A stretch of DNA of 64,000 bases from an uncultured bacterium (GCA_963727715.1 CAVSGX010000004.1:82582-146581); one strand, 5' to 3'; shown: positions 3,904-39,626, counted from the stretch's first letter. Translations and numbers: made by a program. The notes: generated from the letters alone by a model not told the origin.

Positions 3904-3976
3904 AATCCGTACACTAACTTTACCATCGCTTCGCCGTATTTTGAAAAAATACAATGGCAAAGTTAGTGTACGGATA
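3904..3976. repeat. Palindromic structured element, family 2, copy 1. About 70 nt, perfect outer stem ccgtacactaacttt..aaagttagtgtacgg and inner hairpin gtattttgaaaaaatac.
   Basis: A second copy with compensatory substitutions lies at 39554-39626, upstream of tuf. Confidence 0.8.
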
Positions 3977-4067
3977 AAATTAGGTGATAATAATTGTTAA
4001 TGACAATATTATAACACCCACGGCCAAAAAGCCTAGGCCGGATATGCACAGGCTGGTTTTTAACTGG

Positions 4068-4655
4068 CTACAGAACCCCGAGCTTATTTACCAGTTTTTT
4101 GTGAGGATAATCCAGAATGTCGCGAATAAGTTTGTCATACATGCCGTTGCGGTAGTTGAAATCTTCGGTTGTGAAGTAAGAATAGCGCAATTCCTTGCCC
4201 ATTTGCGATTCCAGAGTCTTAATGGTATGTCCCAGAGCCGAATTTTTGACATGGTCTCCGACAATTAAAATATCCACGCGACTTTCTGGATTTTGGATAA
4301 AAACACCGGCCACAAGAAGAAGTTTGATCACTCCTATCTTTGAGATTCTATTTATAATCTCCTTTGGCTGAAGCGGATCAATATTTATCAAAAAATTCTG
4401 CAAAGGCAAAAGATAAGTGAACTGACTATTTAGAACAAAACCGGTTTTGTGGGAATTGCGCATCATATGATGTTTGACTAAACAGGCTTTCTGCAAGAGT
4501 TTTAGTTCTCTGCGAACATTGACCAGATTCTCATTTGTCCTTCTGGCGATTTCAGCAGTGTTGAAAACCGTTTCCGGATTGAAAAGAAAAAGTCGCATCA
4601 TCTTGACCTTGGCCTCCGAGCCAAAAAGTTTTGATAGAGTTTCCATGCCCGCCAT
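4068..4655 (-). CDS. Putative winged-helix transcriptional regulator (N-terminal wHTH plus uncharacterised C-terminal domain).
   Basis: The N-terminal segment SKLFGSEAKVKMMRLFLFNPETVFNTAEIARRTNENLVNVRRELKLL resembles ArsR/MarR-type wHTH. Confidence 0.45.
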   Translation of the reverse strand: MAGMETLSKLFGSEAKVKMMRLFLFNPETVFNTAEIARRTNENLVNVRRELKLLQKACLVKHHMMRNSHKTGFVLNSQFTYLLPLQNFLINIDPLQPKEIINRISKIGVIKLLLVAGVFIQNPESRVDILIVGDHVKNSALGHTIKTLESQMGKELRYSYFTTEDFNYRNGMYDKLIRDILDYPHKKLVNKLGVL

Positions 4656-5044
4656 TATACACCCGAGCCACCCAAAAAAGCGACAGTTGACAAAAAAACA
4701 ATATGGTGATTAGATGATGGAGGAGGTTCGTGTGTTTTACATCAAAATGTTTGTCGTCGGACACAATTTATTCAATCCAGATAAATATTTTGGCCCATAC
4801 AATAGCGTACGTAAATGAAGCGATAGAGGACTTGTTAAAAAATGGCTGGATTCAATCAGATTGTTTAGGACGTTATTACTCAAAGAAGGGACTGGGAGTA
4901 ATATTGTTTGGGCGAGAAATGTTTAGGCGAGAAATGCAAGCATCAATTTTTAAGTTTGAAGACATCAAGGATTTTTGACTAAAAACTCGAGTGCCACGCA
5001 CCCGAGCTTTTCTTTTTTATTACACCTTACTTTTTACTCTCTAC

Positions 5045-5527
5045 TTATTTTAGTGTCACTTTGCCACCCGCCGATTCAATATCTTTCTTGACCTTTTCTG
5101 CATCTTCTTTCTTCATCCCCTCTTTGAGCATTGAAGGAGCGGCATCAACCAGATCCTTGGCCTCTTTGAGACCAAGCCCGAGAACCTCTTTGACCACTTT
5201 GATTACGGCAATTTTAGTTGCCCCACCGTCTGTCAGTTCAACATTGAATGTTGTTTTCTCCTCGCCAGCGCCGGCTCCTGGGCCAGCTACTGGGGTAGCC
5301 ACAGCCACGGTGGCCGCGGAGACTCCGAATTTTTCTTCCAAGTGCTTGACCAGTTCATGCAAATCCAAAACTGACATTTTTTCAATAGATTCGACAATTG
5401 TTTTGAATTTTGTCGGGGTTGAAACCCCGACGCCTTCAGGTCGGGACTCCGACTTCAACGTCGGAGCTGTTTTTTCTTCTTTTGCTTCGGTTTTTGCCGG
5501 AGCTGTTGTGTTTGTTGTTTCGTCCAT
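5045..5527 (-). CDS. rplL: Ribosomal protein L7/L12, with an N-terminal extension if the first Met is used.
   Basis: C-terminal domain ...[65 protein letters not shown]-terminal dimerisation helix [21 protein letters not shown]. Confidence 0.9.
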
Positions 5528-5550
5528 GATAATTTTTAATTTTAATAATT

Positions 5551-6039
5551 TTATTCTTTGCTTTTCGCAATTTCACTGAGAGCCATCACAAATCCCTGTA
5601 TCGGCGAGTTTATCAAATTGACAAACTGGGCCTGCAAAGTTTTCATGCCCGGGATCTGAGCAACAGAGACCATTTGGTTTTTATCCATAAATCTCCCCTC
5701 GAAAATTCCACCGACAATCTGGATTTTTTTGTCCAGCTTTTTCTGGAATTCATAAATCTCGCGAGCCGGATCCAAAAGATCCGAACCGAAAACAATGCCG
5801 AGTTCGCCGAGCATTTCCGGGGCCAGACCTTCAATTTTTTGACCTTCCAAAGCTTTTTTGGCCAGAGTTTTTTTGGCTACGGTATAACTGACACCTTTGA
5901 CACGCAGATTTTTTCTAATTTGCGAAGCTTCCGAAACGGATAAACCGTGGAAATTGACAAAAACCACTGAAATTGAGTCTTTGAAGACTTTTTTCAGTTT
6001 ATCGAAAATTTCTGATTTCTTTTGTTTTGATACTGCCAT
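5551..6039 (-). CDS. rplJ: Ribosomal protein L10.
   Basis: Immediately upstream of rplL. Typical L10 length and sequence (…[35 protein letters not shown]…). Confidence 0.9.
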
Positions 6040-6187
6040 TTGTTTTTTGTGTTTTTAACAAATTAAAAATCGACCTGAAGGTCGGGAGAATAGAAGCGAC
6101 ATTATGTCGTCTAAGTCTCGGTAGGGCTTATGATTGCCTACTGTCTTTGACCTTATAAACAGTATGATACTCGGAAATGAAAAAATG

Positions 6188-37868: not shown

Positions 37869-37869
37869 T

Positions 37870-38196
37870 ATGGGGATGGAATCATTTGGGGAAACAACTC
37901 CTGCTCCACAAGAAGAGACACCAGCGGTAGAAGGAGTTGTGAATGAAAAAAGTGCGACAGAAAAAGGGCTAGACGATGAAAGACAATTACTCAAATATTG
38001 TGATGAAGAAATGCAGAATATGCAACAAAGATACGAGAATTATATGAGGTCGTCAAAAGATCCCGATAACATAAAAGCTGGTGAGGATTTCAGAAATGCG
38101 CAAGCATGTTTAAGGGAGGTGAAAAATTGGAAAACAAAGATTGATGAACATAATATAAATGTAGAAAGATTGGAAGCAAAATTAAACATGCAATAA
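37870..38196 (+). CDS. Hypothetical acidic coiled-coil protein (108 aa) abutting the IS30 right end.
   Basis: ORF followed by a strong terminator. No motifs. Confidence 0.35.
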   Translation: MGMESFGETTPAPQEETPAVEGVVNEKSATEKGLDDERQLLKYCDEEMQNMQQRYENYMRSSKDPDNIKAGEDFRNAQACLREVKNWKTKIDEHNINVERLEAKLNMQ

Positions 38197-38211
38197 TGTA
38201 AAGATACTATC

Positions 38212-38240
38212 AAAAAACCACCGGGAGGTGGTTTTTTGAT
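38212..38240. terminator. Bidirectional rho-independent terminator (3' of the 108-aa ORF on plus and of tuf on minus).
   Basis: aaaaaaccacc-ggga-ggtggttttttga. Confidence 0.8.
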
Positions 38241-38263
38241 TTTGCGCACTCGCACTTTTTTAC

Positions 38264-39460
38264 TTAAGCGATAATTTTCGTCACAACTCCGGCGCCGACG
38301 GTCTTGCCACCTTCGCGAATAGCAAAGCGCATCTTTTCTTCCATGGCTACAGGCGCAACGAGCTTGACTTTGAATGTCACGGTGTCGCCCGGCATAACCA
38401 TCTCCACGCCTTCGTTTAAGGTCACATCGCCGGTCACATCCGTGGTGCGAATGTAGAATTGCGGTTTGTATCCGGAGAAGAATGGTGTGTGTCGTCCGCC
38501 TTCCTCTTTCTTCAAAATGTAAACTTCAGCTGTGAATTCGGTGTGCGGAGTGACTGATTTCGGTTTGGCCAAAACTTGCCCTCGGTGCACCTCTTCTTTC
38601 TTGGCGCCTCGCAAGAGAATTCCGGCGTTGTCTCCAGCCTGACCTTCCTGCAAAGATTTGTTAAACATTTCAATGCCGGTGACAGTGTATTTCTGTGTAT
38701 CTTTGAGACCAATACATTCCACTTCCTCGCCGACTTTGACTACACCGCGCTCAATGCGACCGGTAACCACTGTGCCACGACCTTCAATGGAGAATATGTC
38801 TTCAATTGGCATGAGGAATGGTTTGTCCAGTTCGCGAACCGGAATCGGAAAGTAAGTGTCCAGAGCGTTGACCAATTCCATAACTTTCTTGGCCCACTCG
38901 TCGTTGTTGTCTTTTGATTCTAGAGCTTTGAGAGCCGAGCCACGGATGACCGGAGCGCCAGCGCCGTCAAAACCTTGCTTGGTCAAAAGTTCGCGGACTT
39001 CTTCTTCAACCAAATCAATCAGTTCCAAATCCGGAACCATATCGCATTTGTTCAGAAAAACGATAATTTTCGGCACACCGACTTGCTTGGCCAAAAGAAC
39101 GTGCTCTCGAGTTTGAGGCATCACGCCGTCCGTGGCAGCCACCACTAGTATGGCGCCATCCATTTGAGCCGCGCCGGTAATCATGTTCTTGATGTAGTCG
39201 GCGTGTCCCGGAGCGTCCACGTGAGCGTAGTGGCGAGTAGGTGTGGTGTATTCACAGTGAGCCAAGGCGATGGTAATGCCTCGAGCTTTTTCCTCCGGTG
39301 CGGAGTCGATTTGATCCACACCTTTGACTGTGGCCGAATAACCTTTGCCCTCACGGTTTAAAGTGTTTAGAATAGCCGCTGTTAATGTTGTCTTGCCGTG
39401 GTCAACGTGACCGACGGTCCCCACATTGATGTGAGGCTTGCTGCGATCAAAATCTGCCAT
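38264..39460 (-). CDS. tuf: Elongation factor Tu.
   Basis: [22 protein letters not shown]; full-length EF-Tu. Confidence 0.98.
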
Positions 39461-39553
39461 ATAATTTTTATAATTAAATAATAATTTTTGTTCCGAGCTA
39501 ACTGCAAAAGCACAATACTCGAGAAGTGACTGTGCCCTAGCAATTAGCGACTA

Positions 39554-39626
39554 TATCCGCACACTAAGTCTGCCATCGCTTCGCCGTGTTTTGAAAAAAC
39601 ACAATGGCAAACTTAGTGTGCGGATG
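39554..39626. repeat. Palindromic structured element, family 2, copy 2 (~95 nt upstream of tuf).
   Basis: ccgcacactaagtctgccat...atggcaaacttagtgtgcgg with inner gtgttttgaaaaaacac. It differs from copy 1 by paired compensatory substitutions. Confidence 0.8.

Follow-up and report, generated by a model that had tools for sequence, protein, structure and literature searches.

A 64,000-nucleotide stretch of DNA from an uncultured bacterium (contig CAVSGX010000004.1, positions 82582-146581; hereafter the window), which database sources place in the Parcubacteria (Patescibacteria), carries a 71-nt palindromic element twice, upstream of tuf, the gene for EF-Tu, and upstream of a gene for an MscS-like membrane protein. 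We consider it probable that the element is a small, non-autonomous mobile palindromic insertion, similar to MITEs, the miniature inverted-repeat transposable elements, and to repetitive extragenic palindromes (REPs), that is present in low copy number in one Parcubacteria clade and needs its sense-strand fold for persistence, likeliest as a substrate for mobilisation. Comparison with related genomes shows at least three independent insertions into predicted transcribed 5' leaders, in sense orientation every time.

The element and its fold

An earlier note on the window, made without database searches, had described two palindromes of about 70 nt with at least three base pairs changed on both strands, and had suggested a conserved two-level hairpin. 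Both copies were found within one base of the positions proposed (Table 1), each is 71 nt long, and both lie on the minus strand, in the same orientation relative to their downstream genes, as had been noted; the same holds for the third copy described below. Repeat detection (family D3) and a scan with a covariance model built from both copies gave exactly two copies in the 64 kb. The copies scored 107-109 bits against their own model, on the minus strand, and the next-best match in the window, at 22 bits, was an ordinary terminator-like hairpin.

The sense strand of copy 1 reads, 5' to 3', ATCCGTACACTAACTTTGCCAT-T-GTATTTT-TTC-AAAATAC-GGCGAAGCG-ATGGTAAAGTTAGTGTACGGAT, i.e. a 22-bp outer stem, an unpaired U, an inner hairpin of 7 bp capped by a UUC loop, the 9-nt bulge GGCGAAGCG, and the returning arm. 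The bulge is one-sided (3927-3935 in copy 1, 39577-39585 in copy 2) and conserved. The ends are ATCCGCACACTAA...TTAGTGTGCGGAT (5' start ATCCG), the G+C content is 35-43%, and the arms of 22 bp and total length of 71 nt leave the element too short for any open reading frame (ORF). The predicted sense RNA folds of the two window copies have energies of -38.3 and -43.4 kcal/mol (z -8.6 and -7.8), the antisense folds are weaker (-31.4 and -38.2 kcal/mol), and with DNA parameters the sense strand is again the more stable of the two. As single-stranded DNA (ssDNA) the element is predicted to form a three-way junction with GC-GAA-GC as its third arm; GCGAAGC is an instance of the GCGNAGC mini-hairpin motif, which is extraordinarily stable in DNA (PMC13037366). 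An AUG is present in the 3' arm of every copy, giving a 10-aa in-frame extension in copy 1, a 10-codon upstream ORF in copy 2 and a 7-codon upstream ORF in copy 3. These AUGs are treated as incidental by-products of the CCAT/ATGG palindrome, buried in the stem and without a Shine-Dalgarno (SD) motif.

The earlier note had named the absence of further copies as a point against the structure; one further copy was found. A metagenome-collection search with a transition-tolerant pattern (bulge and loop fixed, R/Y allowed in the stems) gave a single match in the JGI metagenome collection, at 2972-3042 on the minus strand of contig L127. This third copy carries pair-preserving changes and is 96% identical to copy 2, although its host is a different species with a NusA only 83% identical to that of the window contig (P0249). 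In addition, the sequence of copy 1 recurs identically in an independent Logan assembly (L128), and together with the further copy in the JGI contig this argues that the element is not an assembly artefact.

The two window copies differ at 8 of 71 positions (88% identity), all of them in stem columns. Alignment showed three base pairs altered on both sides, exactly of the types first described: U-A/C-G, C-G/G-C and, in the inner hairpin, A-U/G-C. The remaining two differences are one-sided: read on the minus (gene-sense) strand they leave G.U or G-C/A-U pairs, whereas the plus strand is left with A.C mismatches. The L127 copy adds two one-sided changes, both U.G on the sense strand. In the three-copy alignment every one of the 87 pair cells holds a standard pair on the sense strand, as against 83 of 87 for the antisense strand; three pairs show double compensation, and there are three one-sided changes, each tolerated as a wobble on the sense strand alone. 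When the partner was shifted by 1-3 columns as a control, pairing fell to 32-43%. In simulations, nine independent neutral substitutions left all 29 pairs intact in three copies with p = 4e-5 to 1e-3, the range reflecting the choice of transition bias, and since full pairing is this improbable under neutrality the hairpin is under some constraint. Bulge and loop are invariant across the three copies, but for 13 unpaired positions in three close copies this invariance is not significant (about 0.16), and neither is the shared sense orientation (1/4).

Filled and empty sites

At the tuf locus the upstream order is the terminator of the preceding gene (39731-39706), promoter, small hairpin, element, 7-nt spacer, native hairpin, AU-rich stretch and start codon (39460). 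A look-up for an exact match to the EF-Tu of the window gave none. In the relative L148, with an EF-Tu 94% identical, the leader reads GGTGTTTTTGTTTTTC|CGACTGCTAATTGCTAGGGCAC and the 71 nt are missing, as against GGTACTTTTGTTTTC[71 nt]ATAGTCGCTAATTGCTAGGGCAC in the window; at the junction itself TTTGTTTTC[E]ATAGTCGCTAATTGC in the window compares with TTTGTTTTTC^CGACTGCTAATTGC in L148 (E, element; ^, insertion point). The tuf leaders of L118/L119 (EF-Tu 92%) retain the promoter, the small 5' hairpin and the downstream hairpin without the 71 nt, and the element is likewise missing from L121-126 (EF-Tu 91%) and L120.

The membrane-protein gene starts at an ATG at 3896, 8 nt downstream of copy 1, a position given by a 100% identical database protein of 228 aa and by orthologs of 228-230 aa. 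The earlier note had the start inside the element; only the longest ORF (3210-3926) begins there. Copy 1 itself begins 32 nt downstream of the -10 hexamer. The -10 region reads GTGTTATAATATTGTCATTAACAA in the window, AATGTTATAATATATACATTAACAA in L132 and AATTGTATAATATAGTCACTTAACAG in L129, and orthologs of the gene (87% identical; L129-131, L132-138) keep the TGnTATAAT...CATTAACAA promoter and the leader of about 30 nt, with the element missing.

A TATAAT is located 19 nt upstream of the third copy, and 10 nt downstream of it starts a gene for a 76-aa single-pass membrane protein, which directly follows nusA and the nusA terminator. Here L127 reads AAAAATATTC[E]AAAAAATAAAATG, and L140-144, with a NusA 94% identical to that of L127, are empty (AAAAATATCTCAAAATAATATG). 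The small membrane-protein gene is also present, with the element missing, in L145 and in L139, a 10.4-kb contig of the window's own organism, of which window and L139 together cover about 74 kb.

Thus at each of the three known sites one genome carries the element and its nearest relatives do not, with promoter and flanking leader retained, and gain by insertion is therefore far more parsimonious than repeated precise loss. Such comparison of empty and filled sites is standard evidence of recent mobility for small repeats (PMC3184786). All three insertion points are preceded by a T-rich run (TTTT^, TTTC^, ATTC^), and the downstream genes, for EF-Tu, an MscS-like channel and a 76-aa single-pass membrane protein, are functionally unrelated.

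Between the element and either window gene no space is left for a further promoter. Since it lies between a promoter-like site and a start codon, the element should be transcribed as part of a 5' untranslated region (UTR). To this extent the role suggested earlier, a cis-regulatory leader or promoter-associated structure, agrees with the predicted position; on the other hand, the element is missing from the leaders of the relatives, and a conserved leader of tuf (L148, L118-120, L121-126) or of the membrane-protein gene (L129-138) is not what the comparative alignment revealed. The suggestion that the element is no known riboswitch or ribosomal-protein leader was borne out, since for neither locus did an Rfam 15 family reach its gathering threshold; relaxing the limit to E<=10 added only generic hairpin models of microRNA precursors, with 30-36 bits versus gathering scores of 90-100. 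Nor was any match to the element found in viral contigs or in plasmid and phage collections.

Table 1. Positions of the two window copies and of the genes and signals next to them
Feature	Position	Strand	Remarks
Copy 1 of the 71-nt palindromic element	3905..3975	-	repeat family, folding, alignment, covariance model
Copy 2 of the element	39555..39625	-	repeat family, folding, alignment, covariance model
Membrane-protein gene, 228 aa, MscS-like 'conserved TM helix' domain (PF05552)	3210..3896	-	Pfam, protein database match, orthologs
Putative extended -10 promoter element, TGtTATAAT	4008..4016	-	consensus; conservation in insertion-free orthologous loci
tuf, EF-Tu, 398 aa	38264..39460	-	start codon 94 nt downstream of copy 2
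Native tuf leader hairpin, CTAATTGCTAGGGCACAG...TTGTGCTTTTGCAGTTAG	39498..39548	-	20 pairs, common to window, L118 and L148
Small hairpin ATCGCGTTTTAGCGGT near predicted 5' end of tuf transcript	39637..39654	-	present also in element-free relatives
Putative sigma-70-like promoter of tuf, TTGACA-17-TAATAT	39661..39689	-	upstream of copy 2; TTGAC-N17-TAnnAT equivalent in relatives

Mechanism, alternative explanations and known systems

Only copies with the sense-strand bipartite hairpin (22-bp stem, bulge, 7-bp apical hairpin) seem to persist, and a restriction of persistence to copies still folding on that strand would account for the compensatory and G.U/G.T-only substitutions. The likeliest reason would be that a mobilising enzyme recognises the folded single strand, as in the ssDNA transposition of REPs by REP-associated tyrosine transposases (RAYTs) and of the IS200/IS605 insertion sequences. 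Selection on the RNA hairpin would be an equally compatible alternative: the substitution pattern fits both kinds of selection equally, as G.T is a tolerated mismatch in DNA too and an ssDNA hairpin thus also explains strand-specific wobbles. Hairpin-dependent HUH transposases (IS608/ISDra2) act on the lagging-strand template. In the window 42 of 67 ORFs are on the minus strand and the GC skew is weakly negative on the plus strand, so that the sense strand is probably the lagging-strand template as well, and orientation therefore cannot separate the RNA from the ssDNA reading.

For the host, insertion would place a leader hairpin of -38 to -43 kcal/mol before the start codon, in two cases at a distance of 8-10 nt, long enough for RNase III and close enough to hinder or modulate initiation. 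No SD-like motif was seen in the AU-rich start regions near the element. Any effect on the host mRNAs would be a by-product of insertion and not the purpose of the element.

Several observations weigh against a mobile element. All three copies are in sense orientation in 5' leaders, with loop and bulge invariant, exactly as a selected RNA function predicts, although with n = 3 this is not significant. No direct repeat longer than 1-2 nt, i.e. no target-site duplication of the kind expected of a textbook MITE, is present at the three filled/empty junctions; the terminal AT...AT could conceal a 2-bp duplication, yet it belongs to the palindrome. No transposase with matching ends was found, an IS30-like element being the sole complete insertion sequence in the available 74 kb, and Y1/HUH, TnpB and RAYT domains were absent among the about 40 window ORFs, housekeeping genes, that were scanned with Pfam. 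With three copies known, two in the 74 kb of the organism itself and one in the whole JGI collection, where the search pattern was a strict one, a high copy number is not established. A scan of reference genomes with the pattern CCATCGCTTCGCCGN{10,25}CAATGG gave at least 117 matches, those listed being put down to chance in G+C-rich coding DNA.

The most serious alternative, possible in our view but clearly the less probable, is a portable cis-regulatory RNA module, kept because the transcribed hairpin serves the gene, however it spread. It could act as an RNase III processing or stability determinant, as a gate on translation whose stem base lies 8-10 nt from the AUG, or through a protein reading the GGCGAAGCG bulge and the UUC loop. 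RNase III usually needs a stem of a length such as the uninterrupted 22 bp present here. The same explanation is favoured by the location of all three copies past promoter-like sites, by the nine substitution events, which all preserve pairs on the sense strand only, by the invariant bulge and loop, and by the high identity of the element between two species whose NusA has diverged far more; a precedent exists in the Correia elements (PMC2649163). However, none of the close relatives examined has the element in these leaders, which means that the genes can do without it, and these genes have no common function. The invariant unpaired positions fall short of significance, the strand-specific wobbles and compensation are equally expected of an ssDNA hairpin substrate, and the available sequence offered neither an RNase III gene nor a binding protein that could be linked with the element. 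We likewise hold it rather unlikely that the element is something bolder still, either a self-spreading Parcubacteria 5'-UTR module selected as RNA, whose insertion would rewire expression of the gene behind it via RNase III, via occlusion of SD-less AU-rich initiation regions, or via a GGCGAAGCG-reading protein, or else the substrate of an unknown hairpin-recognising ssDNA transposition with GCGAAGC as its recognition feature.

That the element is instead an ancestral regulatory leader, precisely deleted in the close relatives, is close to refuted. Long palindromes are prone to deletion, and the element does lie in leaders beside conserved promoters, but independent clean losses would be needed at three unrelated loci in at least eight sampled lineages. 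Moreover, the organism itself is empty at the nusA site that is filled in L127, the empty sites hold no remnants, and the three loci are not paralogous. Just as improbable is that the element acts as duplex DNA, for instance as a palindromic operator or a recombination site for a dimeric protein, or that it is an intrinsic terminator or attenuator. The near-perfect dyad symmetry and the location just downstream of promoters would suit an operator; operators, however, conserve their half-site sequence without covariation and are typically far shorter than 71 bp, and here the dyad is interrupted by a one-sided 9-nt bulge and one-sided changes are tolerated only as wobbles on one strand. The terminator or attenuator was rejected, since no T/U run follows the stem on either strand (sense-strand flanks TAATCACT, ATAGTCGC and AAAAAATA; antisense flanks A-rich) and a terminator scan does not call the element.

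With regard to known systems, membership of the mobile element in any compared family is not established: no duplication was detected, the hallmarks of REPs are lacking, and no parent transposase matched. Correia elements are about 100-155 bp long, with 26-bp terminal repeats around a core and a duplicated TA target; they carry IHF sites and promoter halves and occur in hundreds per genome. By analogy, these elements (also named CREE or NEMIS) would be the nearest functional counterpart, in being small transposase-less inverted-repeat intergenic insertions with filled/empty polymorphism that often lie between promoter and gene and are co-transcribed into long hairpins. In contrast to them, the present element is all one 71-nt hairpin, of low copy number, without duplication or sequence similarity, and from another phylum. 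In Neisseria, the RNA hairpin of Correia elements is bound, and cut or protected, by RNase III, and the expression of adjacent genes is altered (PMC2649163); with its uninterrupted 22-bp stem, the element described here would share the substrate-like geometry alone.

The mode of spread seems to resemble REP/RAYT and IS200/IS605 more than textbook MITEs, given the missing duplication and the strand-specific imperfect hairpin. Members of IS200/IS605 (IS608/ISDra2) insert without duplication 3' of a short target, in a manner tied to the lagging strand, and rely on imperfect hairpins with unpaired bases. Their derivatives, the palindrome-associated transposable elements (PATEs), are comparable in duplication-free, strand-specific insertion and dependence on an imperfect hairpin, but have two different subterminal hairpins where the present element is one end-to-end palindrome; furthermore, no TnpA/TnpB gene is present in the available sequence, and the three target sites have only T-richness in common. 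REPs and the bacterial interspersed mosaic elements (BIMEs) built from them are likewise short, imperfect palindromes outside genes that lack a target-site duplication and are believed to move as single-strand hairpins; REP-containing transcripts show altered mRNA stability (PMC3184786). REPs are about 20-40 nt long and G+C-rich, have a conserved GTAG head, usually lie 3' of genes or between convergent ones in tens to hundreds of copies, and include a REP-flanked RAYT (in part PMC3184786), whereas the present element shows no such features and has 71 nt, a modest G+C content, an ATCCG start and two copies in the window. Textbook MITEs are defined by terminal repeats and target duplications (PMC3184786, PMC11602168). 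The element resembles them in terminal inverted repeats, lack of coding capacity, a length <200 bp, a stable fold and filled/empty polymorphism (PMC3184786, PMC11602168), but it has no 2-10-bp target-site duplication, and no parent insertion sequence with matching ends was found, the IS30 neighbour having been tested without a match. With 5'-UTR cis-regulatory RNAs (riboswitches, ribosomal-protein and tuf leaders) it shares sense leader position and covariation; unlike these, it is not kept at orthologous loci, has unrelated genes downstream, and is without an Rfam match.

A few specific candidates were rejected. The IS30-like element lies 1.7 kb from copy 2 and its inverted repeats (about AATTTAGACACT) are unrelated to the element end ATCCGCACACTAA, which excludes an IS30-derived MITE. 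By-eye comparison ruled out an integron attC-like site, as the R'/R'' consensus GTTRRRY/RYYYAAC is unmatched, and a K-turn, as the internal loop has just one U on its short strand, so that tandem G.A pairs are impossible. A weak model match at 7671-7736 in L129 is a different palindrome that has only TTTTGAAAAAA in common with the element, and lies in an ORF-free stretch taken to be rRNA or intron sequence.

Neighbouring features and implications for the lineage

Beside copy 2, the hairpin at 39498-39548 is without Rfam match. Comparison of window, L118 and L148 revealed one compensatory pair and several sense-strand G.U pairs in it, and we regard it as the native tuf leader of the clade and as a better candidate for cis-regulation of tuf than the 71-nt element. 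Upstream of tuf, a 256-aa protein without Pfam match (39773-40543, minus strand) is encoded between a DUF5663 gene and tuf. L118 and L121 lack this gene and have DUF5663 directly before tuf; judged from this comparison, the gene would be another lineage-specific insertion in the str-operon region. On the other side of tuf, between rpsJ and tuf, lies an intact IS30-family transposase gene (HTH_38 and rve domains; 36846-37815, plus strand; terminal repeats about AATTTAGACAC), and an ORF with an HTH_38 match only (20318-21247, plus strand) might represent part of an IS30-like gene. Both element-bearing genes, the membrane-protein gene and tuf, have a bidirectional terminator hairpin downstream (ATCAAAAAACnACC...GGTnGTTTTTTGA; 3157-3190 and 38209-38243), and the two hairpins are nearly identical.

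A second, unrelated family of structured elements, about 170 nt long, is represented in the window at 2974-3143, 7899-8070, 18398-18569 and possibly 40629-40792, and elsewhere in L140 (1866-2021), L145 (5004-5125) and L147 (5535-5620). Its members enclose a conserved, branched, G+C-rich core with a closing stem of 27-33 bp, the arms of which vary in sequence yet remain complementary. For the copy at 7895-8075 the folding energy is -109 kcal/mol (z -14); the family gave no Rfam match even at E<=0.1. The matches in relatives are inside called ORFs, rsmA-like in L140 and L147 and uvrD-like in L145, and the family recalls in-frame palindromic insertions such as the RPEs of Rickettsia. The presence of this second hairpin-repeat family in the same genomes shows that the lineage tolerates hairpin elements.

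The fusA gene is seemingly split into ORFs at 44679-45584 and 45819-46838 (minus strand), one for the GTPase domain and one for domains III-V, and the expected place of domain II is taken by a gap of about 230 nt; relatives have a single 713-aa EF-G, and the split could stem from a frameshift, an insertion or an assembly error. The match to large-subunit rRNA at 412-2513 (minus strand) spans the full 2925-position model within about 2.1 kb at a low score of 790 bits, and a tRNA-Ala (370-446, minus strand) overlaps its 3' end, so that the 23S gene may be unusual, fragmented or atypically arranged. A tRNA-Ile with anticodon TAT (UAU) is present at 57036-57110 (minus strand); the UAU anticodon is an uncommon bacterial way of reading AUA.

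Small mobile palindromes are familiar from proteobacteria, firmicutes and cyanobacteria, and descriptions from the tiny, streamlined genomes of the Candidate Phyla Radiation are all but lacking. For Patescibacteria, a literature search turned up no description of any such element, and the phylum goes unmentioned in the main text of a survey covering 183,232 genomes. The element is a new family of a known kind of element rather than a novel riboregulator for tuf. When a repeated hairpin shows compensatory substitutions, this alone is no evidence of a dedicated riboregulator, and for annotation the present result averts a false call of a new tuf leader or riboswitch and directs attention to the real tuf leader hairpin alongside. 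It also means that, in this Parcubacteria lineage, such insertions can reach even core loci like the tuf leader. If the restriction to 5' leaders and to the sense orientation were to hold strictly throughout the genome, the element would exemplify a naturally occurring, transposable module of post-transcriptional control.

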